Below, one piece after another: positions 19,516-31,507 of a DNA stretch of 32,000 nucleotides (positions within the stretch are counted from its first letter, which is position 1; each line of letters starts with the position of its first letter). The notes beneath the pieces are model-generated. The model was given only the letters and a program-made list of their open reading frames with translations, was not told the DNA's origin and ran no database searches. Location: contig NZ_CP195536.1 of the NCBI RefSeq assembly GCF_051307035.1, positions 540,001 to 572,000 of the forward strand. Reading direction: 5' to 3'. This DNA is from Psychrobacter sp. DM4 (lineage in GTDB: Bacteria > Pseudomonadota > Gammaproteobacteria > Pseudomonadales > Moraxellaceae). The translations under genes and the position numbers were made by a program.

Positions 19516-19633
19516 ACAACGACTAGCGAAACAATAGCTAGTCAAAAGAATACTAGCTCAAACGAGTAACACTTATCGTGATTGCGATTTTATTTTTATA
19601 GTGGCATAGCCTGTTTTAATTAGAGGAATGAAT

Positions 19634-21592
19634 ATGGACATACTTATTATCGTCGGCGTGGTTGTGGTGCTGGCGTTTGTTTTCATCATGGCAGCGCTTT
19701 TGATGCTCAAAGCTTTTTACGTCAAGGTCGAGCAGGGCAAAGCACTGATCATTAACGGCGTAAACAAAATCGCTGTGCGTTTTGATGGCGGTTTTGTTTG
19801 GCCGATCATCAACAAAAAAGAGCTCATGCGCATCTCGCTTATTACGTTAGAGGTCGATCGCCGCGGTAAAGAAGGACTGATCTGTGCCGACAACATGCGC
19901 GCCGATATTACCGTCGCCTTTTATTTAAGGGTAAATGAAACCGAAGAAGACGTGCTTAAAGTTGCCAAATCCGTGGGCGTTGAGCGTGCCTCAGATAAAG
20001 TGGCAGTAAACGAGTTATTCAATGCAAAGTTCTCTGAAGCACTAAAAACGGTTGGTAAGCAGATAGATTTTGTCAAATTATTTGAGAACCGTAGTGAGTT
20101 TCGCGACAGTATCGTCCAAGAAATCGGTAATGATCTTAACGGTTATGTCCTAGAAGATGTCGCGATCGATTATTTGGAGCAAACGCCAAAATCCTCACTG
20201 GACTCGAGCAATATCTTGGATGCTGAAGGTATCAAAAAGATCACTCAGCTCACGGCCATGCAAAACATCATTACCAATGAGCTTGAGCGTGACGAAGAGC
20301 TGGCGGTAAAGAAGAAAAACGTCGAAACCAGAGAGGCTATGCTGGAGCTTGAGCGTCAACAAGCCGATGCTGAAGCCAAACAACAACGTGAGATCTCTTC
20401 GGTAATTGCACGTGAGACTGCTGAAACCCGTAAGATTGAAGAAGAAGAACGCAAAAAGTCTGAAACGGCGATCATTGTGGTTGAGCAGGACTTGGCAGTA
20501 CAGCGCGAAAACCAACAGCGTGAAATCGAAGTCGCTGAACAAAATCGTATGCGCGCCGTTATCATCGAGCAAGAAAAGGTTACTCGAGCACAGGATTTAG
20601 AAATTGTCTCGCGTGAGCGTGAAGTCAACTTGCAACGAATTGAGGCTGAAAAAGCGATTGAGCTTGAGAAAAAAGAGATCGCCAATGTCATCCGTGAGCG
20701 TATCGTCGTCGACAAGTCAGTAGCGCAAGAAGAAGAGCGTATTAAAGAAGTACGCGAAGTCAGTGAAGCCGATCGCGACAAGCAAACGCGCGTGTTAGCA
20801 GCTGAGGCGGAAGCCGAAGAAGGCAAAGTGCGTCAAGTCAAAAAGGCGGAGGCAGAAGAGTTATCTGCTAAGCACAAAGCGGTTGAAATCATGACCCTTG
20901 CCAATGCCAATCTAGAAGCCGCTGCAAAAGACTCAGAGGCCAAGATAAAAATGGCTGAAGGCACCAAAGCGGAAGAATCAGCGCGCGGTTTTGCTGAAGC
21001 GGCTATTCAAGAAGCTAAAGCCAGCTCACTTGAAAAAGAAGGTCTTGCCAAAGCCAATATCATCAAAGCGACTGGACAAGCGCAAGCACAATCTGATCGT
21101 GAAATTGGTATGGCTGATGCCGAGATCATCGCGGTTCGCGGTGAGTCGAATGCCAAAGCTGAGCGTGAAGTTGGACTGGCCAAAGCCGAAGTTACGCGTG
21201 CGCACTTCCAAGCCGAAGCCGATGGTTTGGTCGAGAAGTTCAATGCGATGGGTAGCATGAGCACTGAGGCGCGCGAGCACGAAGAGTTCCGCATGGGACT
21301 TGAAACCGCGCTACAAGAAGCGATGGCCTCTATCCAAGCCGGTAAAGAGATCGCCAAAGAAAATGCTGAAGTGTTAGCAGTGGCGCTACAAAAAGCCAAA
21401 ATCGATATCGTCGGCGGGGAGGCGCATTTCTTTGATAACTTCGCCAAGTCACTATCTATCGGCAAAGCTATCGATGGCCTTGCAGGCAAGTCTGATACTT
21501 TGAGCGGTATTATCAATACGATGATGGCGAGTCAGTTGAGCGGTAAGACCAATAAGTCTAGTAACGACGATTCTGATAACAAGCCTGCTTGA
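19634..21592 (+). CDS. flotillin-family SPFH/band-7 protein (YqiK-like) with extended E/A/K/R-rich coiled coil
   Basis: N-terminal TM anchor 'ILIIVGVVVVLAFVFIMAALLML'. SPFH core 'YVKVEQGKALIINGV.....RFDGGFVWPIINK....ISL.TL.VDR.G..GLIC.DN.RADI.VAFY.RV'. This is followed by about 400 aa of Glu/Ala/Lys/Arg-rich helical repeats. The AGAGGA RBS is too close to the ATG at 19628, so I prefer the ATG at 19634. Confidence 0.85.
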   Translation: MDILIIVGVVVVLAFVFIMAALLMLKAFYVKVEQGKALIINGVNKIAVRFDGGFVWPIINKKELMRISLITLEVDRRGKEGLICADNMRADITVAFYLRVNETEEDVLKVAKSVGVERASDKVAVNELFNAKFSEALKTVGKQIDFVKLFENRSEFRDSIVQEIGNDLNGYVLEDVAIDYLEQTPKSSLDSSNILDAEGIKKITQLTAMQNIITNELERDEELAVKKKNVETREAMLELERQQADAEAKQQREISSVIARETAETRKIEEEERKKSETAIIVVEQDLAVQRENQQREIEVAEQNRMRAVIIEQEKVTRAQDLEIVSREREVNLQRIEAEKAIELEKKEIANVIRERIVVDKSVAQEEERIKEVREVSEADRDKQTRVLAAEAEAEEGKVRQVKKAEAEELSAKHKAVEIMTLANANLEAAAKDSEAKIKMAEGTKAEESARGFAEAAIQEAKASSLEKEGLAKANIIKATGQAQAQSDREIGMADAEIIAVRGESNAKAEREVGLAKAEVTRAHFQAEADGLVEKFNAMGSMSTEAREHEEFRMGLETALQEAMASIQAGKEIAKENAEVLAVALQKAKIDIVGGEAHFFDNFAKSLSIGKAIDGLAGKSDTLSGIINTMMASQLSGKTNKSSNDDSDNKPA

Positions 21593-21939: not shown

Positions 21940-24900
21940 ATGGCGGATACGCAAAACCCAAACCCTTCTCATAGCCCAGATAAGAACCAGCAAAAGACGC
22001 AAGCGGACCAAACCGATCAGGCCGTGGCTTCAGGTAATGCTTATGAGCTGATCAAAAAACGCCTAACTGAGCAGGGTAATCGCTTAGAGGTGCAAACGGC
22101 TACGTTGAACAACGCGCGCTTACAAGAGTTTGGCAGTACGCAAATGCAAGTCATTGCGCGTACCCGTATCCGTACCGAATACAACTGCGTCGCACAGGAT
22201 ATGGTACAAGTCGGCGACTACTTGCTGTTTGGCTATAATGTCTTTATGGGGCTCAAGCGCGCGAGCACTGTCAAAGATGTGCTATCGCTCTACCGCTTGA
22301 CCGAACCTAGTAATAAAAGCAATGCTCAAGTTAGCGTTGATGACAACAGCAGTAATGCAGCCACTGATACGGCCGGAACCTTTACACAAGTTAAGTCTAC
22401 CGCGAGCAGGGACAATGATTATCAATTAGAAGAAGTTGATTTGGCGGGTACGTTTTTGGCGCAAGATAATTTTGTGCAAGACTTTAATGAGCTGTATCGC
22501 TATTACAAACAAACCCGTCTCATTCAAATAACGGTCAAAGACAGCAAACTACTACTAGCGTTTCAGATTGGCGAGCGCATTACCGATATTCGAGTGTTTC
22601 GATTTGCACTAGACTTCAGCGAAGGTACTCCTGAGGCGGCGCGTGTCGCTTATGTAGACAACCGTGGCGAGCGCGATATCGAACTGCCTCCTGCTTATGA
22701 TTTTGATTGGATTGAGACTACCCGTGATCAGATGATCAACGGCAAGTATCCGCACATGAATATCTTGGATACAGTCTTTGTGGAGACCATAGGCGGTGAT
22801 CTGACTATCAAAATAGAAGACAACACCCAATCAGGGCAAGGGATCTATAGCGAGTCGGTGAGTGATAGTACTCAGTCGCTCACCGATGCTGAAATTCATT
22901 ATGCCAAAGTTGGCAGTTTAATACTGCTCAAAATCCTGCCTTACCGAGAGGACAATTACCGCTATTTTGTCTATAACACTCTGACCGAGACGGTATTACG
23001 CTTGGATGCTATTGGGCAATCTTGTGTGCAATTGCCTGAGGATCATGGCATTATTTTCCCAGGCGGTTACTACCTACAGACGGGCGAGTATAAGCTATTC
23101 GATAGTAGCAATGGCGATGGCAATACGAGCAGCAGTACTGGTAAGAGTCTAAAGTTTAAGCGCCGTATCGTCTCACCTAATGGTGAAGATGTGCTGTTTT
23201 TATTTTATGACAGAGACTTAGGAGTCACTGGGTTATTCCCTTATAACCTCATCAAAAAACAATTAGCAAACCCTATCTATTGTAATGGTATGGCACTGGC
23301 TGAAAACGGTCGCTTAGTACTGTTCAGCGCGCAAAGCGACGCCTCACGTATTCATCCAATGCAGATATGGCACACGCCTTACGCCTCACAAGAGTATGTC
23401 AGCGAGCTGCCAGAGAGCACTAGCTTTTATGGCAAGATTGGCAATAAGGAGCTAGTACGCGGTATCTCAGACCTATATAGCATCACCCGCCTCATTGATA
23501 ATCAAAGCGTCTCACAAAAACTCTATGAGGAACTCGCTGATAATACCAGTCGCCTATTCGACAACTATTATTGGTTGTCTGAGCCTGACTTAACTGAGAT
23601 TGCGGGGAGTATCAAGGAAGTCACTGCGACCGCTGAGCTGGTCATTGATGAATTTGCCAAAGTACAGAGCATCCAAAAGCAAACTCAAAACGCGCTAGCG
23701 GAAGCTGAAACCAAACAGAACGAAATCGTACGACAAATTAAAATCACGACCTTTGAGAGTGCGAGTGATTACGTCGATCAGTTATCAAATATCAGACGTC
23801 AAAAAGGCCATTTAGTCAGCTTAGAGGACTTGCGATATTTAGACGGCGAAAAACTAGAGACGCTACAAGGCCAGTTAGAAGACGCCGAAGCTAATCTCGC
23901 TGAGCAAACCGTGGTCTATTTAAGCGCAGATAAAGCGCTATCGAGTTACGATGAGCTATTAGTAGACGTCAACGAGCGCCTTGAGACGGCAGAGACCAAT
24001 AGCGAGCTAAAACCTGTACTGGAGCAAATAGACAATACCGCGCAGGGATTGGATTTGCTAACCGAATTGCTCGGCACTTTAGATGTCGCCGATGCTACCG
24101 TACGTACGCAAATTATCGATGATATCTCAGCTATTTATTCACGCCTCAATCAAAGCAAAGCCAAGCTTAACCATAAACGCAAAAACCTTGGTTCAGCTGA
24201 GGCAGTTGCCCAGTTTGGCGCGCAGTTCAAGCTCTTTACGCAGTCGATCGCCAATGCCTTGTCGATTGCCAATACTCCTGAGAAGTCCGATGAGCAAATG
24301 GCCAAGTTACTGGTGCAATTAGAGGAGCTGGAGAGTCAATTTGCGGATCCTGAGACCAATAGTGGCGATCAGTTCTTAGCTGATATTATCACCAAGCGCG
24401 AAGAGATTTACGATACCTTTGAGAACCATAAACAGCAACTGCTCGATACCCGTAACCGTAGAGCGCAGAACTTAGGCGATGGTGCACTACGGATGCTTGA
24501 GAGCATCAAAAAGCGTACCCAAAGTACCGGGGTTACCGGCTTTATCGAAGAGGAGGCGCTCAACACTTACTTTGCCTCTGATGGCCTAGTACAAAAAGTA
24601 CGCGGTATCGCCAAAAGCTTGCAAGAGATGGGCTTTAGCGTCAAAGCCGATGATATCAATGCGCGCCTAAAAGCCCTTCAAATTGAGAGTTATAAGAGCC
24701 TCAAAGACAAGTCCGACTTGTTCGAAGAGGGCGGTCAAATTATCAAACTAGGCAGACATCGTTTTTCTGTCAATACTCAGCCATTAGATTTGACCTTGCT
24801 CAGTCGCGGGCACAACGACGGTACACGCATTCTGAATTTACATCTAACGGGCACAGACTATTACGAAGTGCTCGACAATGCTGAATTAAACGCCTTGCGT

Positions 24901-27900
24901 CCCTTTTGGGATATGAACATCGCCTCAGAGTCCGACAAAGTTTATCGTGCTGAATATTTGGCCTATAGCATCATCGAGAGCGCCAAAAATAGCCAAGACT
25001 GTCTGACTGAGGCGCGTCTATATCAGGCTTATGACGACACCGCTAGCGCTCTTAATAGCAGCGTCAGTAATACAGGCAATATTGACGACAGCCCACTTGC
25101 TAAACTAGTCAAAGCTCATGCTACGCCGCGCTATCAACTTGGGTACGACAAAGGCATTCATGATCATGACGCCACACGGCTGCTGATGCAAATATTGCCA
25201 ACACTGCGCGATGCCGGACTGCTGATATATACCCCACAAGTACGGGCGCTCGCGCAAGTGTTTTATTGGCAACTGGCTATCGTAAGGGCGCTCGGTCTGA
25301 GCAGTCTTAAGCAATACGGCTATTATGATCAGTGGCTCGATGACGTGCTACTTATGCGTATCGACAACTGGACTGACAGAGCCATGACCGCCGAGCAGCT
25401 GCGCCGCACTCTAGGTAGTGACACCGCCAAGGCGTTGCTAGTGGAAGATATGACGCAAGTGATGCGCCGCTTTGTCGCCGCTTATAGCGATAATAGCATC
25501 ACCAGTACTAACGGCACTAATAAAGAAGATAGCAAGGCTAATACTACCTTTGATAAGGAGCTGGAGACTAGCGGCATCCACAACGCCAATATTTTTAAGC
25601 AAAGCTATGTGGCTTTAGCTTGTGAATATTTAGTTAGCGTCATGGGTCAAACTGCTGATAGTAATGCAAGCTTAAGTACAGATCTAAAATCTGCTGCAAG
25701 CAAAAGTATCAAATGGCAGACGAGCAAGCAAGCGCAGGACTTGTGCAAACAGTTAGTAGAGACAGTCAGTAAAACCAGTACTGACGTTAGTGCTTCTTCC
25801 GCTAGCAACAAGGCGGGTTTTGAGCAGCTCCAAGTCGCGGTAGGCAAACTTGGCTTTCAGCCTAAATCTGCTTATGAGTTATTAGCGACTTGGTTCCATG
25901 CGCTACTCGATAAAGCCTATGCCAATAGCAAAGATGCTAATGCTAATAGTGATAGCAATGAGCTTAGTGAAGAACAGCGCGCCGAGCGTGAGACTCAAAA
26001 CGTACGACGTCAGCAACACTTACAGAGCGGTCGTCATTATGTGCCTGAAGCTATCGCAATTATGCTCACCCAGTTCAATGATGCTCAGCGCGAAACTTTA
26101 GTGCAGCGTCTTATCGACTCGGGTGCTAGCTTTGAGAATGGGGCGGCAAACGCTTCATCACGCTTATCCTTTAGCTCGGCTTCTTCTTTAACTAGTAGTA
26201 ATAACCCGCTCAATCAAGTGCAAAGCTTTGAGCGCGGCACAGGTGAGGTCGCGCTTGAGATTCAAGTTGATAATTTGCTCGGCGAGCACGAGCGTATTCA
26301 CAGCCAGACGCTCAGCTTTGCACTTGATGACTTCTTAAGCCGCTTGCATCATCATGAAAGCCAAGTTATTCCTGCTTATAGACGCTATCTCGCTATGCGC
26401 TCCGAGATCTTGCATGAAGCCCGCGAGGCGCTACGACTGGACGAATTTATGCCGCGTCCATTGTCCTCCTTTGTGCGCAACCGTTTGATCAATGAGAGCT
26501 ATCTGCCGCTCATCGGTGATAACCTTGCCAAGCAAATGGGAACGGTCGGCGAAGATAAGCGTACTGATCTGATGGGTATCCTGATGATGATATCGCCGCC
26601 AGGGTACGGTAAAACGACCCTGATGGAATATGTAGCAAACCGTCTCGGTCTTATCTTTATGAAGATTAACTGTCCGTCACTCGGTCATGATGTGACCTCG
26701 TTAGATCCCGAAAAAGCACCCAATGCGACAGCGCGTGAAGAGCTAAATAAAATTAATCTTGCCTTTGAGATGGGCAATAATGTCATGCTCTACTTGGATG
26801 ATATCCAGCATACGCATGCTGAATTTTTGCAAAAATTTATCTCACTTGGCGATGGCACGCGCCGTATCGATGGCGTCTGGCAAGGCAAGACTAAAACCTA
26901 TGACATGCGCGGCAAAAAGTTCTGCGTGGTCATGGCAGGTAACCCATACACCGAAAGCGGTGAGGCCTTTAAAGTGCCTGATATGCTCGCTAACCGTGCT
27001 GATATTTACAATTTAGGCGATATCATGAGCGGTATGGAGGAGGTCTTTGCACTCAGCTATATCGAGAACTCGCTCACCTCAAACAAGGTCCTTGCGCCTC
27101 TTGCTAATCGCGATTTGGCAGACGTGCATCGTTTGATTAAGATGGCAAAGGCAGACAATCCTAGTCTAGCGCAAGTGCAAGCTAGCGAGCTGACCTATCC
27201 GTATAGCACCTCGGAGATTAACGAGATCATCGCTATTCTGCGCCATATGTTCACTGTGCAAAAGGTGATCCTTGACGTTAACCAAGCCTACATCGCCTCG
27301 GCATCGCAAGATGATAAATACCGTGTTGAGCCGATATTTAAGCTCCAAGGCAGTTATCGTAATATGAATAAGATGACCGAAAAACTATCAGCAGTCATGA
27401 ATGATAATGAGCTGAACCAATTAATAGACGATCACTATTTAGGTGAGTCGCAACTGTTGACCCAAGGCGCAGAAAGCAACTTGCTCAAACTTGCAGAGAT
27501 GCGCGGCGAGCTTGACGATGCCGAAGCTGAGCGCTGGGCGCAAATCAAAGCCGACTTTTTGCGTAATAAAGCGATGGGCGGGGAGGACGGCGACGTTGGC
27601 GCTCGTATCGTCGCGCAACTGGTCGATCTTGCCAGCGGCTTCAATGCTATCAGCAGTCAGTTTGATACTTACCTTAGTCAAAACGATCCTGAGCAAACAG
27701 CGCGTCTTAGAGAAGCATCAGAACAAACAAAACGAGACGCGCAGCTTGAATCACAAAAACTACTCGCCGACAGCGTTATCACGGGTTTTGTAGATAACGC
27801 CAAAGTCGTCAGCGACAGCATCGATAATGGCTTTGGGAAAAGTATGAATCAGCTCATGCAAATCTATAAGCATGACCACGATGCTGAGGTGGCAGAAGGT

Positions 27901-28203
27901 GAGTCCCTCAAGCAAAATCAAGAGATGCAAAAAGCACTCATGGTGCAATTGGTCAGCGCAGTTGAACAATTAGCGCAGCAAATGGCTCAAAGTCTATCGA
28001 GTGGTGCTGACAATCAAGCCTCGAACACCGATCTCACTGAGCAAACCGCGTTACTGGTAAATGTGCTCAAGCAAGCGCTAGAGCCACTCACCATGCGACT
28101 AGACGAAAAGCTCGCCCTCGATACCAGCACGGAGCAATCGGGCAAGCTCATCGTTAACAGTCTTAATCAACTTAACAAAATATTTGATGAGCACCGCTCA
28201 TAG
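21940..28203 (+). CDS. giant (2,087 aa) uncharacterised protein with beta-rich N-terminal region, long coiled-coil/helical middle and one MoxR/AAA_5-like AAA+ ATPase module
   Basis: Uninterrupted 6,264-nt ORF. Walker A 'SPPGYGKTT' (K1558, nt 26611-26613). Walker B 'VMLYLDDIQH' (D1620/D1621, nt 26797-26802). 'VVMAGNPY' has N1668 at the sensor-1 position. 'PDMLANRADIY' contains R1686. All other-frame ORFs inside it are short shadows. Confidence 0.85.
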   Translation: MADTQNPNPSHSPDKNQQKTQADQTDQAVASGNAYELIKKRLTEQGNRLEVQTATLNNARLQEFGSTQMQVIARTRIRTEYNCVAQDMVQVGDYLLFGYNVFMGLKRASTVKDVLSLYRLTEPSNKSNAQVSVDDNSSNAATDTAGTFTQVKSTASRDNDYQLEEVDLAGTFLAQDNFVQDFNELYRYYKQTRLIQITVKDSKLLLAFQIGERITDIRVFRFALDFSEGTPEAARVAYVDNRGERDIELPPAYDFDWIETTRDQMINGKYPHMNILDTVFVETIGGDLTIKIEDNTQSGQGIYSESVSDSTQSLTDAEIHYAKVGSLILLKILPYREDNYRYFVYNTLTETVLRLDAIGQSCVQLPEDHGIIFPGGYYLQTGEYKLFDSSNGDGNTSSSTGKSLKFKRRIVSPNGEDVLFLFYDRDLGVTGLFPYNLIKKQLANPIYCNGMALAENGRLVLFSAQSDASRIHPMQIWHTPYASQEYVSELPESTSFYGKIGNKELVRGISDLYSITRLIDNQSVSQKLYEELADNTSRLFDNYYWLSEPDLTEIAGSIKEVTATAELVIDEFAKVQSIQKQTQNALAEAETKQNEIVRQIKITTFESASDYVDQLSNIRRQKGHLVSLEDLRYLDGEKLETLQGQLEDAEANLAEQTVVYLSADKALSSYDELLVDVNERLETAETNSELKPVLEQIDNTAQGLDLLTELLGTLDVADATVRTQIIDDISAIYSRLNQSKAKLNHKRKNLGSAEAVAQFGAQFKLFTQSIANALSIANTPEKSDEQMAKLLVQLEELESQFADPETNSGDQFLADIITKREEIYDTFENHKQQLLDTRNRRAQNLGDGALRMLESIKKRTQSTGVTGFIEEEALNTYFASDGLVQKVRGIAKSLQEMGFSVKADDINARLKALQIESYKSLKDKSDLFEEGGQIIKLGRHRFSVNTQPLDLTLLSRGHNDGTRILNLHLTGTDYYEVLDNAELNALRPFWDMNIASESDKVYRAEYLAYSIIESAKNSQDCLTEARLYQAYDDTASALNSSVSNTGNIDDSPLAKLVKAHATPRYQLGYDKGIHDHDATRLLMQILPTLRDAGLLIYTPQVRALAQVFYWQLAIVRALGLSSLKQYGYYDQWLDDVLLMRIDNWTDRAMTAEQLRRTLGSDTAKALLVEDMTQVMRRFVAAYSDNSITSTNGTNKEDSKANTTFDKELETSGIHNANIFKQSYVALACEYLVSVMGQTADSNASLSTDLKSAASKSIKWQTSKQAQDLCKQLVETVSKTSTDVSASSASNKAGFEQLQVAVGKLGFQPKSAYELLATWFHALLDKAYANSKDANANSDSNELSEEQRAERETQNVRRQQHLQSGRHYVPEAIAIMLTQFNDAQRETLVQRLIDSGASFENGAANASSRLSFSSASSLTSSNNPLNQVQSFERGTGEVALEIQVDNLLGEHERIHSQTLSFALDDFLSRLHHHESQVIPAYRRYLAMRSEILHEAREALRLDEFMPRPLSSFVRNRLINESYLPLIGDNLAKQMGTVGEDKRTDLMGILMMISPPGYGKTTLMEYVANRLGLIFMKINCPSLGHDVTSLDPEKAPNATAREELNKINLAFEMGNNVMLYLDDIQHTHAEFLQKFISLGDGTRRIDGVWQGKTKTYDMRGKKFCVVMAGNPYTESGEAFKVPDMLANRADIYNLGDIMSGMEEVFALSYIENSLTSNKVLAPLANRDLADVHRLIKMAKADNPSLAQVQASELTYPYSTSEINEIIAILRHMFTVQKVILDVNQAYIASASQDDKYRVEPIFKLQGSYRNMNKMTEKLSAVMNDNELNQLIDDHYLGESQLLTQGAESNLLKLAEMRGELDDAEAERWAQIKADFLRNKAMGGEDGDVGARIVAQLVDLASGFNAISSQFDTYLSQNDPEQTARLREASEQTKRDAQLESQKLLADSVITGFVDNAKVVSDSIDNGFGKSMNQLMQIYKHDHDAEVAEGESLKQNQEMQKALMVQLVSAVEQLAQQMAQSLSSGADNQASNTDLTEQTALLVNVLKQALEPLTMRLDEKLALDTSTEQSGKLIVNSLNQLNKIFDEHRS

Positions 28204-28223: not shown

Positions 28224-28388
28224 ATGGCACACAAAAAAAAGAACGTCCGCAAAAAAGAGTGCCCCGTCTGTGAGCGCGAGTTTAGTTGGACTAAAAAGCT
28301 CGATAAAAACTGGGAGAGTATGGTCTATTGCTCAGATCAATGCCGCCGGGTTAAGACCTATGAGAATGTAGAACATAAGAAAGGATAA
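28224..28388 (+). CDS. DUF2256-type small zinc-ribbon protein (54 aa), copy 1; not in ORF track
   Basis: My translation: [54 protein letters not shown]. It has the CPVC...YCSxxC four-Cys pattern with a basic 'W.KK' core. AAGGAAA RBS. The ATG lies 20 nt after the giant-ORF stop. Confidence 0.7.
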
Positions 28389-28392
28389 AACC

Positions 28393-28539
28393 ATGGCACA
28401 TAAAAAGGAAAACCTACCGCAAAAAATCTGCCCTGTATGCCTGCGTCCTTTTACTTGGCGTAAGAAGTGGGAGAAGGATTGGGACAACGTTGTTTATTGT
28501 TCTGAGCGTTGTCGGCGGGGGAAGGATAAAGCGGATTGA
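28393..28539 (+). CDS. DUF2256-type small zinc-ribbon protein (48 aa), copy 2; not in ORF track
   Basis: My translation: [48 protein letters not shown]. It shows the same Cys pattern and about 26 of 44 aligned residues identical to copy 1. AAGGA RBS. It starts 4 nt after the copy 1 stop. Confidence 0.7.
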
Positions 28540-28616
28540 ATCAGAATTAGGATAAAAGAAGACCGCCACGTTTTCTAACCCAATGTTGCCAGAGGAGGAA
28601 GATAGAGGTGGTGGTG

Positions 28617-28637
28617 CTTCTTACATATAATTATAAA
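28617..28637. repeat. left copy of imperfect direct repeat bracketing the AT-rich island
   Basis: cttct-tacatataAttataaa (28617-28637) compared with cttct(atc)tacatataGttataaa (31393-31416). The 16-nt core matches at 15 of 16 positions, and both copies carry the shared 'cttct' prefix. Confidence 0.4.
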
Positions 28638-28671
28638 AAAAGTATAGTGAACGTAATAGCTTGCATGCTTA

Positions 28672-29682
28672 TTAAGCTATTTTTCTAATAAAATAGTCAT
28701 ATCTATCTTGAATATGATTTTCTTTGAAAGCTCCTTTAATAGATTGTCTCAAAAATACTTCTAAGTCCTTTTGCGTAAGAATCATAACTAATCCTGCTTG
28801 ATTTCTATTAGCTAGATTCGATAAATGATTAAAATAAGAGTTTTTAATCTCATCACCACGAAACACTATAATTCCGAATTTACCTAAAGTATCGTTTAAG
28901 TAATAACCCATTTGATGAAAATCGTCTGATTTTAATTCTGTATAGTTTTTACATTCCCAAACAATTTGGGTAGCACCATATTTATTGCGAATCATTTCCC
29001 AAAAACCATCTGTTGCTCTGTTAGATGCAACCCAGTCTCTAATACTAGAACCTTCATGAGTCCTTTCTGAAGGTTGAACATTGACTAAAGAGCGGAAAAA
29101 GCATAGTTTTATAATTTCGCCAGTAATATCTTCAAACTCTTTTGCTCCAGAAGTTCCTGTGGGAAGATCTTTAAGTCTTGCAAGGAGGTCTTCTAGAGTT
29201 ATTTTATAATCATCTAACTGAAAACTTTCGGGTATATCTTCTAATAATCCTTCGACCTTTAAACTAGTATCATCTTTCAAATCAGTAATAAGTATAGGCT
29301 GTAGATTTAAGGCTTTATGATAAGTTGGATGAATTTCGAAAATACTACTATTACCTATAGCAGGTTTTGCGTTTGATTCTTTTCCTGATTCCTTATATTG
29401 AACGGTCTTATTTCGTTGAATTCCAATAAAACCTATTCCATACATTATTTCGATAAACCTAAAAGGAGTTGCGTTTTCAAATAACCAGTCTTTACAATAT
29501 TTATTAATCATATCGTTAATCAAAAGCTTTTGAATGAAGTCTTCTATTGCGTTTAGCGTAAACTTGTTACCAAGTCCATAAAAATATTCTAATACAAAGC
29601 TAATATTAGGATAATTCTCAGCAAACTCATCACCTAAATCTTTAAGTCTGCTTGTGCTATATCTAATAGAAGCACTTTCCAA
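28672..29682 (-). CDS. PD-(D/E)xK (Mrr/restriction-endonuclease-like) nuclease-domain protein; probably the C-terminal part of a frameshifted NTPase-nuclease gene
   Basis: The C-terminal half has the order helix-E ('KEFEDITGEIIKLCF', E183), D ('SSIRDWVAS', D216) and ExK ('QIVWECKNY', E243/K245, nt 28948-28956). The ORF begins at a TTG with no SD and no ATG for 57 codons. It overlaps the upstream ORF by 49 nt. A sampled 60-nt line is about 30% G+C. Confidence 0.65.
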   Translation of the reverse strand: MESASIRYSTSRLKDLGDEFAENYPNISFVLEYFYGLGNKFTLNAIEDFIQKLLINDMINKYCKDWLFENATPFRFIEIMYGIGFIGIQRNKTVQYKESGKESNAKPAIGNSSIFEIHPTYHKALNLQPILITDLKDDTSLKVEGLLEDIPESFQLDDYKITLEDLLARLKDLPTGTSGAKEFEDITGEIIKLCFFRSLVNVQPSERTHEGSSIRDWVASNRATDGFWEMIRNKYGATQIVWECKNYTELKSDDFHQMGYYLNDTLGKFGIIVFRGDEIKNSYFNHLSNLANRNQAGLVMILTQKDLEVFLRQSIKGAFKENHIQDRYDYFIRKIA

Positions 29683-30719
29683 ATTTTAATTGTAATTTTG
29701 GGGTTTCCACTGTTTATAGCATTGTCTATTGCGTAACTACAGAGCATAAGAACATCTCTCGGTCTATGCTGACAAAGTGACATAACTTGTGTTTGCGTAT
29801 TGAAGTTGGAGTTAGTATCATCGAAAAAATAACTCCAAGCTTCACCACCTAGTTTTGGCTTTGTTGTGAAGGGTTTGACCAATCTACGTTCTACAAGTTC
29901 TATTAACTTTTTCTGAGACCAGTCTAGGAAAACAGAAGATGTTTCTAGTCTTGAAAATTCATTGTCCATGGCTCTAATTCTATCGTAAATATTTTCTCTT
30001 ATAAAAATTAAAGGTCTTATGAAGTCTGTTGTGGCTCTTAGTCTTACTGAAGCGTGCATCAAAGCCATTAAACAAATTATTGCTGATTCGGAACCATCCC
30101 AAGATTCATCAAGACGATCGATAACTATTATAAAGTTGAAACTATTATTGGTAGCTATATTATTAGCTTCTTTAGTTATTTCACTACTACGTTTTACTTG
30201 TCTTAGCCATAGCTTTGAATTCTCTTTCGTGTATGCTTCGAATATCTCATCTGTTAAATTTAGAACTCTTTGATCAAAATCACAATTCTCGATTAAACCG
30301 CGTTCGCGATTGATTTGTCCATATTTTTTGTCAAATTTAAATAAATTTTGATTAGTCCATGTTTGGATTACTTCATCAATCAAAGCTCTTTCCATAGAAC
30401 ACATTAGAGATTTAAATGGTCTTTGTCTTGTATCTAAAAAAGCTTCATGTTCCAAAGGTAGAGTAATCAAATCGAAGATTTGAGGAGCTAAATGGATTGT
30501 TCTCGGGAATTTGCGTTGAACCTCAAAGGTCAATGCTGTTTTACCAGCGCCACGACGTCCAATAAAAAAGCAATCAGTTGATTTTTCGTCTAAAGAACTA
30601 ATAGTAGAAGGTGTGGATACGAATAATGCGTGGTCCTTTCTTATGATATCGTATTCTGCAAAAGCCTCTCCTAATCTAACTTTAGTCAATGCATTTTTAG
30701 GTAATTGTACTTTTCCCAT
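29634..30719 (-). CDS. P-loop NTPase (AAA/STAND-like, Orc1/Cdc6-style lid); probably the N-terminal part of a frameshifted NTPase-nuclease gene
   Basis: Walker A 'GRRGAGKT' (G54-T61, K60). Walker B 'FNFIIVIDRLDESW' (D201, D204/E205). Downstream are 'IFIRENIYDRI' and the lid-like 'HRPRDVLMLCSYAIDNAINSGNPKITIK'. GGAGAG RBS lies 6 nt before the ATG at 30719. Confidence 0.7.
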   Translation of the reverse strand: MGKVQLPKNALTKVRLGEAFAEYDIIRKDHALFVSTPSTISSLDEKSTDCFFIGRRGAGKTALTFEVQRKFPRTIHLAPQIFDLITLPLEHEAFLDTRQRPFKSLMCSMERALIDEVIQTWTNQNLFKFDKKYGQINRERGLIENCDFDQRVLNLTDEIFEAYTKENSKLWLRQVKRSSEITKEANNIATNNSFNFIIVIDRLDESWDGSESAIICLMALMHASVRLRATTDFIRPLIFIRENIYDRIRAMDNEFSRLETSSVFLDWSQKKLIELVERRLVKPFTTKPKLGGEAWSYFFDDTNSNFNTQTQVMSLCQHRPRDVLMLCSYAIDNAINSGNPKITIKIWKVLLLDIAQADLKI

Positions 30720-30753
30720 AATGAACTCTCCAATATGTTTTTAACTAATATCA

Positions 30754-31149
30754 TTAAAACCAATCAACCACGACTAAACCTTCTACACGCTCAAACTCTT
30801 TAGTATTATGCGTCACCAAAGTAGCGTTATTAGCAAGAGCGCAGCCTGCTATTTGTATGTCATAAGGGCCGATAGGTTGACCTTGACGTTCAAGTGTCGC
30901 TCGAATATGTGCTGAAACCTCTGCTTCTTTACGACCAAATGGCATGACTTGAACTTGTTTTAAAAGAGTAGATAATTGACTCAAACGTTTATCAGGGCTA
31001 GTAGATTTTTGAATACCGACATTCAGCTCGTAAAGTACAACAGTAGGAATGATAATTTCATGCGGATCATAAGAGTAAAGGTGTGAGGCAACTTGCCCCA
31101 CACCTTTGAAAAAGTAAATTAGCGTATTTGTATCTAAAACATAGCTCAT
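30754..31149 (-). CDS. vapC: type II toxin VapC (PIN-domain ribonuclease)
   Basis: 131 aa. 'YVLDTNTLIY' (Asp6), 'VLYELNVG' (Glu), 'PYDIQIAGCAL' (Asp) and 'LVTHNTKEFERV' form the classic PIN acidic quartet. A 4-nt ATGA overlap joins it to the upstream antitoxin ORF. Confidence 0.88.
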   Translation of the reverse strand: MSYVLDTNTLIYFFKGVGQVASHLYSYDPHEIIIPTVVLYELNVGIQKSTSPDKRLSQLSTLLKQVQVMPFGRKEAEVSAHIRATLERQGQPIGPYDIQIAGCALANNATLVTHNTKEFERVEGLVVVDWF

Positions 31150-31382
31150 AGGGATTCACGCTCGGCGTCATTACCTTGAGTATCATGAATCTCATCCAAA
31201 CTTGGAAAATCAGCCCAACTACCAGCCAATGCTTTGACTTCTGGTGACCATCCTTGATGCTGTTTAACTTGTCGCTTAACAAACTGACTTAACCAGAGAT
31301 CAGGCGCTATGTTTTCAGAATTAGCCATTTGATAAACAATAGCTTCAACTTCTTCGTCTAGCGTTAAAGTAATTTGGCTCAT
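31146..31382 (-). CDS. vapB: type II antitoxin (VapB-like partner of VapC)
   Basis: 78-aa ORF that is translationally coupled (ATGA overlap) to the PIN toxin. GGAG RBS. A palindromic operator candidate lies in its promoter. The antitoxin fold class cannot be assigned from sequence by eye. Confidence 0.7.
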   Translation of the reverse strand: MSQITLTLDEEVEAIVYQMANSENIAPDLWLSQFVKRQVKQHQGWSPEVKALAGSWADFPSLDEIHDTQGNDAERESL

Positions 31383-31475: not shown

Positions 31476-31507
31476 GCGGGATTGACTACTAAAGCAACCA
31501 ATCCCGC
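31476..31507 (-). terminator. Rho-independent terminator of metH (minus strand)
   Basis: GCGGGATTG (31476-31484) pairs with CAATCCCGC (31499-31507) in a 9-bp stem. On the minus strand the hairpin is followed by ttttgctttt. Confidence 0.75.

Follow-up and report, generated by a model that had tools for sequence, protein, structure and literature searches.

The stretch of DNA analysed here, the window, comprises 32,000 nucleotides (nt) of Psychrobacter sp. DM4 (contig NZ_CP195536.1, positions 540,001 to 572,000 of the forward strand). Toward its right-hand end, on the minus strand at 28672–30719, two overlapping open reading frames (ORFs) of 361 and 336 amino acids (aa) had been described in an earlier note, made from the sequence alone, as a two-gene cassette of a nucleoside triphosphatase (NTPase) and a nuclease. 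The overlap, the exact coordinates and the AT-rich setting hold: the guanine-plus-cytosine (GC) fraction is 0.326 in the gene, against 0.399 in the adjacent vapBC pair and 0.450 across window positions 1–28200, and nowhere in the window is the AT content higher. The two-gene interpretation does not hold. The ORFs are the halves of a single gene that a 1-nt frameshift has interrupted; it encodes a protein of the Sll1717 family in which an AAA+ ATPase is followed by a predicted PD-(D/E)xK nuclease. Its parts are listed below, with residues of the C-terminal domain in ORF2 numbering.

28672..30719, minus strand: whole gene, frameshifted; Sll1717-family AAA+ ATPase, winged-helix-like middle and predicted PD-(D/E)xK nuclease; 682 aa in the intact allele
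29634..30719, minus strand: ORF1, 361 aa; conserved AE(Y)D motif at the N-terminus, then AAA+ core and lid, with a premature end past the frameshift
28672..29682, minus strand: ORF2, 336 aa; overlaps ORF1 by 49 nt
30537..30560, minus strand: Walker A GRRGAGKT, residues 54-61; invariant in 31 homologs and in distant branches
30105..30131, minus strand: Walker B strand IIVIDRLDE, residues 197-205; D201, D204 and E205 invariant, distant branches included
29715..29765, minus strand: lid helix with RPRD motif, residues 319-335; putative sensor-2 arginine region
29681..29693, minus strand: frameshift site, located by blastn of the window against the contig L001
29278..29682, minus strand: middle helical/beta-hairpin (winged-helix-like) domain, the start of ORF2; C-terminal part of the NF047389 model
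28675..29235, minus strand: C-terminal PD-(D/E)xK restriction-endonuclease-fold domain; E184, D216, E243-C-K245, Q257xxxY261

One gene interrupted by a frameshift

The NCBIfam model NF047389 ("P-loop ATPase, Sll1717 family"; 454 positions) runs collinearly over both ORFs, its positions 1–345 aligning to ORF1 residues 16–350 (163.8 bits) and its positions 344–454 to ORF2 residues 3–125 (77.9 bits). Each ORF passes the curated cutoff of 75 bits, and NCBI gives homologs the name of this family; full coverage of the model is reached only when the two frames are joined. When the fusion is repaired by one residue it recovers 493 homologs, nearly all of them ~681 aa long, among them a 682-aa protein reported at 100% identity with full coverage and slightly different residues at the repaired junction. 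The contig that carries this intact allele, L001 from Logan, gives a 4044-nt blastn alignment with the window, 99.75% identical and interrupted by one gap only. Where the frame breaks, ACAATTAAAATTT in the window stands against ACAAATAAAAATTT in the intact allele; in the alignment of the two, the junction appears as ACAAATAAAAATTTGG in the intact contig and as ACAATT-AAAATTTGG in the window. The lesion is a contraction of A5 to A4 together with an adjacent A to T change, so that one A is lost and the shift is -1. Because one model spans both ORFs, because the intact allele differs by a single gap at the junction, and because the homologs are single proteins, the two ORFs are the halves of one gene. 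The annotation of DM4 treats them as separate products without protein accessions, and an exact-sequence look-up finds intact alleles only in two other assemblies.

The two-gene cassette is therefore ruled out by the single model over both ORFs and by the intact allele—an outcome half-anticipated by the earlier note, which had remarked on a "repaired fusion." Some features of the locus could still be taken for a genuine two-protein system (361 aa plus 336 aa) or for -1 ribosomal slippage used as a regulatory device: the ORFs overlap by 49 nt, the -1 shift falls within an A/T-rich run, and a possible TTG start codon lies at the beginning of ORF2. We regard this as very improbable. All full-length homologs, including that of the 99.75%-identical strain, are one continuous protein; the break lies in the middle of the NF047389 model; on inspection, no X_XXY_YYZ heptamer is present and no Shine–Dalgarno sequence is evident before the TTG of ORF2; and other disruptions within the family fall at different positions. 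Programmed frameshifting, in particular, is excluded by the absence of a slippery heptamer and by the single frame of all relatives.

Those other disruptions are found at L016 10001-12050, where the family member is split into 156 and 540 aa, and at L019 9989-11737, where it is truncated to 582 aa. Both derive from metagenome-assembled genomes, one at 1.4x coverage, and may be assembly errors rather than independent cases of pseudogenisation.

The window copy is either a true pseudogene or the product of a homopolymer or sequencing error in the assembly; in either case the locus is a single unit. The frame breaks after residue 345, and DM4 is predicted to make a truncated ATPase only, with the DNA-binding and nuclease parts gone. 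Unless the frameshift is an artefact, the module is probably inactive in this strain. The locus is best annotated as a pseudogene of the Sll1717 ATPase/nuclease family, frameshifted and lying in a variable slot beside vapBC, and not as a two-gene system.

Domain folds and conserved residues

Conservation was read from an alignment of 31 homologs with 52–76% identity to the first sequence and a mean column identity of 70%. In the ATPase, the residues invariant across these homologs are G54–T61, D201, D204 and E205, R241-E242-N243, Q317, and R319-P320-R321-D322; in the nuclease domain, numbered on the intact protein, they are E530, D562, E589-C-K591 and Q603xxxY607. The Walker A, Walker B, RPRD and nuclease motifs are kept in branches at ~22% identity. 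Within the lid, P320 and R321 are retained across distant branches, and Q317, R319, P320, R321 and D322 are invariant in the close family. Judged by these invariant predicted catalytic residues, the ATPase and nuclease activities are both under selection. The form of the Walker B strand, hhhhDxxDE, is one that we take to be of the STAND/NACHT-like type, and the QxxxY of the nuclease domain is presumably a RecB-family signature.

Most of the motif assignments in the earlier note were accurate. The Walker A, Walker B and lid (RPRDVLMLCSYAIDNAI) strings that it quoted are all present and begin at ORF1 residues 54, 197 and 319, which makes its K60 correct. For the nuclease, it had named D216, E243 and K245 correctly; its fourth residue, E183, is misplaced by one position, since residue 183 is F and the conserved glutamate is E184.

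An AlphaFold2 model of the full-length protein, built from the 31-homolog alignment, has a predicted local distance difference test score (pLDDT) of 82.7. A Foldseek search of this model against the PDB returns ORC2/Cdc6-Orc1, TnsC, the archaeal AAA+ protein SSO1545, MuB, RdrA and BrxC as its top matches, with expectation values (E) of 3e-4 to 5e-3 (4e-4 to 2e-3 for TnsC and MuB); FokI is also among the matches. The alignments to ORC/Cdc6 cover 460–520 columns and continue past the ATPase into the following helical/beta-hairpin domain. The model thus contains an AAA+ core with intact Walker A and B motifs, a helical lid and then a winged-helix-like element, though at E ~1e-4 the assignment to a clade is approximate; Pfam returns only sub-threshold AAA_16 and ORC-CDC6-like matches. 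The C-terminal 187 residues, modelled alone from the window's own sequence, reach a pLDDT of 89.7 and show the alpha-beta-beta-beta-alpha-beta core in the expected order. Their best Foldseek matches are the N-domain of Rpb5 and the restriction enzyme EcoT38I; Rpb5_N is a family that, as we understand it, Pfam places in the PD-(D/E)xK clan. The fold core and the D...(D/E)xK residues are both present in this domain, and catalysis is predicted. Among proteins of solved structure, no sequence relative was found, the best hit being a spurious match to VapW (E 0.37), and in a viral structure library the matches were confined to generic AAA+ proteins and Rpb5, without any at E<=1e-3.

The modelled layout is therefore a short N-terminal motif, an ORC/Cdc6-STAND-type AAA+ ATPase, a middle domain that is probably a winged helix, and a PD-(D/E)xK nuclease domain with QxxxY. 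An N-terminal ATPase and a C-terminal nuclease within about 680 aa is the arrangement that the earlier note had proposed, and the folds and invariant residues agree with it; the search with structural models that it recommended supports both the AAA+ and the nuclease fold.

Genomic settings and proposed role

The Sll1717 family is already catalogued, under NF047389 and with thousands of relatives, and is not unknown to databases. An exhaustive profile search of 1.84 billion representative proteins recovers 2,018 clusters at E<=1e-10, a figure that rises to 4,520 at E<=1e-3 and falls to 239 at E<=1e-30; most full-length family matches are 670–720 aa long and aligned over positions ~16–660. Among ~185,000 species-representative genomes, by comparison, there are only 21 loci, scattered across six or more phyla: they come from Gamma-, Beta- and Alphaproteobacteria, Verrucomicrobia, Bryobacterales, Bacteroidetes and Planctomycetes, with distant relatives in Chloroflexota and Solirubrobacterales. 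The GC content of the gene is below that of its flanks in every one of these 21 loci, and an all-against-all BLAST of their 231 neighbouring ORFs finds no conserved partner gene. The gene is a stand-alone one that moves horizontally.

Relatives also occur on plasmids and other mobile elements. A tblastn search of 72,556 plasmids finds ~300 records with relatives of the same length at 22–26% identity, and the following settings were seen there and in chromosomes.

E. coli IncF plasmids, including the 99,158-bp plasmid of K-12 EMG2: 698-aa ORF straight after tnpR in a Tn1000/gamma-delta (ISEc63-family) transposon; 292 bits to NF047389
L027 4965-7061 (EMG2 F plasmid), L025 6965-9061 and L026 6461-8557: third ORF of Tn1000/gamma-delta, WP_000422420.1
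Klebsiella and Citrobacter SSU5-like phage-plasmids: 'HypX' gene, 689 aa; 249 bits to NF047389
Vibrio: adjoining a KAP NTPase gene, or amid HigB, ParD and an S-type pyocin DNase
P. fluorescens: type VI secretion system (T6SS) array of Tle1/DUF2931
B. pseudomallei: prophage, between integrase/HicB and structural genes
Ralstonia: insertion sequence (IS) element and VgrG-Tle3 region
Acinetobacter: AlpA/YfjJ/DUF932 integrative element
Enterobacter: within the transfer module of an integrative and conjugative element (ICE)
Cupriavidus: immediately upstream of Gabija (GajA at 8e-47, plus GajB)

The 99,158-bp plasmid of K-12 EMG2 we take to be the F plasmid. Carriage on Tn1000 accounts for the labels "transposase" and "gamma-delta 80.3 kDa protein" that some homologs bear. 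The 'HypX' copies (L023 7986-10055 in Citrobacter; CP101896.1 and CP101890.1 in Klebsiella) occupy the accessory region of ~110-kb phage-plasmids often met with in clinical isolates of these two genera, with DUF4942, RNase HI and a phage Dam-type methyltransferase among the neighbours. On the Nostoc plasmid pANSO36C (L048 4992-6443) lies an ATPase-only relative of 483 aa without the nuclease, among genes for DUF87/HerA, NurA, DUF3696 and two HNH endonucleases, which hints at split or multi-gene versions in cyanobacteria.

The transposon setting raises the possibility of a transposition accessory, in which a TnsC/MuB-like target-selecting ATPase, fused to a TnsA-like nuclease, would help to move an element. 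Two of the top structural matches are TnsC and MuB; several sources label homologs as transposases; a homolog lies inside Tn1000/ISEc63-type transposons straight after tnpR. For Tn3-family transposition, however, tnpA, tnpR and res suffice. Neither a transposase nor a recombinase is conserved nearby in the 21 species loci or in nine further contexts, and the window has neither a transposase nor a terminal repeat around the gene, its strain-specific segment holding one gene only. The replacement of the nuclease by other enzymes in some variants, described below, also suits an effector, not a step in transposition. We consider such a role improbable, even though NTPase–restriction endonuclease (REase) effectors are reported to derive from transposon ATPases (Zhang et al. 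2016, via PMC10853773).

In DM4 itself the gene occupies a variable slot beside a toxin–antitoxin (TA) pair.

28558..30753, unstranded: strain-specific 2.2-kb segment, 33% GC, with this gene only; slot between vapC and DUF2256
30754-31149, minus strand: VapC (PIN domain, E 9.7e-15)
31146-31382, minus strand: small antitoxin
L042 8397-10888 and L043 8396-11681: slots with alternative cargo

Homology to other Psychrobacter strains ends at the vapC stop codon (30754/30755) and restarts at the DUF2256 gene (~28539–28557). Strain AH5 carries genes of 114 and 496 aa in the slot, and in strains from sewage metagenomes an IS110 element lies there together with genes for a VPA1262-N protein of 554 aa and a protein of 500 aa; the slot is a variable hotspot, not demonstrably a defence hotspot. 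The window contains no tRNA gene that would point to a tRNA/att-type insertion. The vapBC pair, whose adjacency the earlier note had pointed out correctly, is conserved between Psychrobacter strains and ends 34 nt upstream of the start codon of the ATPase-nuclease gene. No terminator-like site lies between vapC and the gene, and a strong terminator-like hairpin at 31507–31476 separates vapBC from metH. Given the 34-nt gap, co-transcription with vapBC is possible; it lacks statistical support, a promoter and terminator scan having returned nothing above shuffled expectation.

On the other side of the gene, two tandem DUF2256 zinc-ribbon genes of 54 and 48 aa (28224-28388 and 28393-28539, plus strand) separate it from a gene for a giant 2,087-aa protein (21940-28203, plus strand) that carries DUF7902, an AAA_5 domain of the dynein type and DUF3686, for which the Pfam description is "ATPase involved in DNA repair." The first DUF2256 gene also has weak matches to Lar restriction-alleviation and YacG-like zinc ribbons. 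A 654-aa ORF without a Pfam match (19628-21592, plus strand) precedes the giant gene, which some Psychrobacter strains have at this locus and AH5 lacks.

The proximity of this giant protein, and the structural likeness to ORC/Cdc6, could suggest a housekeeping factor of replication or repair, whether an ORC/Cdc6-like initiator or a repair nuclease. We disfavour this reading so strongly as to consider it nearly negligible: the gene is found in only 21 of the ~185,000 species-representative genomes, is absent at the same locus in sister Psychrobacter strains, is atypical in GC in every host, is broken in DM4, and occurs in mobile-element contexts.

Variants of the architecture bear on what the nuclease does. 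Two relatives contain the whole ATPase-nuclease protein together with a further enzyme: P0187 (900 aa) has a C-terminal nucleotide cyclase, and P0256 (981 aa) an N-terminal PNP_UDP_1 phosphorylase. In alignment A4, the nuclease Asp and ExK are lost in exactly these two proteins. This pattern suggests that one effector has replaced another on a conserved ATPase scaffold; because the fusion variants with another enzyme are those that have lost the nuclease residues, the nuclease would be the effector of the canonical form. The nuclease domain also occurs without the ATPase, behind PRTase-CE in P0189 (PDC-M36A-like in PADLOC) and, in a protein of 1,094 aa with a methyltransferase domain, at the C-terminal end.

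A census of 111 neighbours of family members includes type II methyltransferases, XamI, N6_Mtase, AbiEi, and MADS-like and OLD/AriA-like ATPases, and TA genes adjoin family members in the window, Vibrio and Burkholderia. We consider it reasonably probable that the locus encodes a stand-alone nuclease-NTPase conflict protein of ~682 aa, of the Sll1717 family and inactivated here, which is a plausible weapon against phages or plasmids. Beyond the identity, frameshift, folds, conservation and contexts described above, we infer DNA binding, oligomerisation-gated cleavage and a role in defence. The ATP-bound ATPase, with its winged-helix module, would bind DNA and oligomerise on it, or else respond to a cue from the invader; DNA binding and oligomerisation are proposed because the structural relatives ORC/Cdc6, TnsC and MuB behave in this way. 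Oligomerisation would then bring nuclease domains together to cut DNA, and either the incoming phage or plasmid would be restricted or the infected cell would be killed, as in abortive infection. The gene itself travels as one-gene cargo of mobile elements and in variable chromosomal slots.

The same settings could instead reflect selfish cargo, with the ATPase-nuclease serving its carrier element through exclusion of rivals, stabilisation or toxicity, and protection of the host not being primary. Carriage by a Tn3-family transposon, phage-plasmids, a prophage and an ICE would fit such a role, as would the adjoining TA modules, T6SS effector/immunity arrays and pyocin genes and the lack of a conserved immunity or modification partner at the 21 loci; related modules of NTPase, helix-turn-helix (HTH) and REase act as toxins in Crinkler effectors (PMC5289972). 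This explanation overlaps heavily with the preceding one, because exclusion of phages or plasmids is defence when seen from the host. Neither a domain for secretion or delivery nor a cognate immunity gene was seen, and chromosomal copies sit in islands beside Gabija, restriction-modification and KAP NTPase genes. We judge it unlikely, though not negligibly so, that service to the carrier is the primary function.

Several findings weigh against a conflict protein that acts in immunity. The copy in DM4 is broken and allows no statement on activity in this strain. The structural matches are weak (template-modelling scores of 0.2–0.5, E ~1e-3 to 1e-4) and fix the class of fold but not the mechanism. 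No named defence model of PADLOC v2, and none of the NCBIfam antiphage models, claims the whole protein. The DefensePredictor study (PMC13092281) validated an anti-phage ATPase encoded by a single gene, DS-41 ('AAA2', WP_033812887.1), to which the similarity is marginal: the gene scores 37.8 bits against DS41_1_antiphage (NF053860), far below the equivalog cutoff of 370, and pairwise comparison gives a BLASTP E of 0.007 and an hhalign probability of 18.5%. Housekeeping genes are numerous among the 111 neighbours, and no enrichment statistic stands behind the census; the T6SS-effector, pyocin and transposon contexts fit selfish or competitive cargo equally as well as anti-phage immunity. PADLOC found no match among the alternative cargos of the Psychrobacter slot, which is neutral as a proxy for a defence hotspot. 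Finally, we found no experiment on the function of any family member in the searchable literature, including work on Sll1717, PRTase-CE, PDC-M36/M28 and Tn1000; a paper on serine-recombinase markers (PMC13552941) does not contain the family. The earlier note's suggestion of a defence system is thus borne out insofar as the contexts of homologs point to conflict or mobile cargo; a defensive function is read from context, and the alternative cargos of the slot are not known defence genes.

A broader interpretation of the conflict protein, which we advance tentatively and hold to be somewhat doubtful, is that proteins of the Sll1717 family form a widespread, unnamed single-protein immune system that includes the third ORF of gamma-delta and 'HypX'. 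Invading DNA, or some cue from a phage, would be sensed by the AAA+ module, whose oligomerisation would switch on the RecB-like nuclease; the lineages with a cyclase or PNP_UDP_1 domain would couple the same sensor to other outputs; and the family may be the bacterial stock of the eukaryotic Crinkler NTPase-HTH-REase toxins. If so, an overlooked gene of gamma-delta on the F plasmid, and of phage-plasmids common in the clinic, would gain a function.

Comparison with known systems

A PADLOC v2 scan of the intact protein at E<=10, one of the checks that the earlier note had called for, returned only two models, each at the level of a domain: PDC-M36A matches the nuclease at 2.9e-20 (ORF2 residues 167–310 against positions 286–429 of 457; 144 residues), and PDC-M28C matches part of the ATPase at 4.6e-8. 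Models of Gabija, Septu, PARIS, Lamassu, Hachiman, Shedu and Avs gave no match even at this threshold. The profile searches placed both ORFs in NF047389, a family of unknown function. The description of the locus as uncharacterised and outside any named system is therefore accurate with respect to PADLOC v2 and the NCBIfam antiphage models; it is inaccurate if taken to mean unknown, given that the family is catalogued and its architecture has been described for the Crinkler type. The gene is a member of NF047389, a model that covers the ATPase and middle domain only, and neither the C-terminal nuclease nor a function.

The gamma-delta ORF of 698 aa belongs to the same NCBIfam family, is of similar length and has the same order of domains, with Walker A and B, RPRD and D...(D/E)xK. 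It differs in its ~21–23% identity, in having D-x-K in place of E-x-K, and in lying within a Tn3-family transposon, whereas the gene in the window has no transposon around it. With PDC-M36A, by contrast, the homology is confined to the nuclease: its N-terminus is PRTase-CE where an AAA+ ATPase stands here, and there is no full-length match. From the "M" in its PADLOC name we take PDC-M36 to be a multi-gene candidate, and to our knowledge it is itself unvalidated. No neighbouring gene is conserved in the 21 loci, and the segment in the window is single-gene, so membership in that system is not supported either.

Over all but the last ~100 residues of DS-41, the likeness consists of an N-terminal AExx motif, Walker A, a DxLDE Walker B and a PR(D/E) lid in the same order, both proteins being encoded by single genes. 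At 502 aa, DS-41 is too short for the 682-aa layout. The ATPase is a remote relative of this validated anti-phage protein, a link that speaks for the conflict reading although its statistics are marginal. Avs and other STAND sensors combine a C-terminal repeat sensor with an N-terminal effector; here Pfam finds no repeat domain, and the nuclease is C-terminal. The transposition ATPases TnsC and MuB are encoded in one element with a cognate transposase, and no transposase neighbour is conserved in the family; in Tn1000 the gene is paired with a Tn3-type TnpA/TnpR, which makes no use of such an ATPase.

The closest description of such an architecture, with the same order of domains, is a computational one for the C-termini of Crinkler effectors, "P-loop NTPase + HTH + REase," and for their prokaryotic relatives (PMC5289972, PMC10853773); the latter reportedly arose from ATPases of transposons that belong to the Cdc6/ORC clade (Zhang et al. 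2016, via PMC10853773). The proposed logic, in which the nuclease is toxic and the NTPase regulates it, is also the same. The eukaryotic header or delivery domain of Crinklers is not found in this bacterial, intracellular protein, and the two are likened by architecture only, not by sequence.

A 2025 survey of 16 nuclease-NTPase systems describes most of the NTPases as helicases of superfamilies 1 and 2 (bioRxiv 10.1101/2025.07.10.664194). Systems of this kind, such as Gabija, Hachiman, AbpAB, Hna, Nhi, Olokun, PD-T4-1/4/8 (Shedu), Upx, Septu and PARIS, share with the Sll1717-family protein the pairing of a PD-(D/E)xK nuclease with a P-loop NTPase, in which cleavage is expected to depend on assembly of the complex; no PADLOC model for any of them matches the protein at E<=10. 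They differ in that their NTPases are mostly helicases, or, in the case of GajA of Gabija, an OLD-type ABC ATPase, whereas that of the Sll1717 family appears to be an AAA+ ATPase of ORC/Cdc6-STAND type; none of them has the architecture seen here. If the family is indeed defensive, it would represent a compact, one-gene nuclease-NTPase system built on an ORC/Cdc6-STAND-type AAA+ motor, unlike the mostly helicase-based named systems, and its effector-swap variants, together with the nuclease that it shares with PDC-M36A, would offer natural handles on the coupling of sensor and effector.

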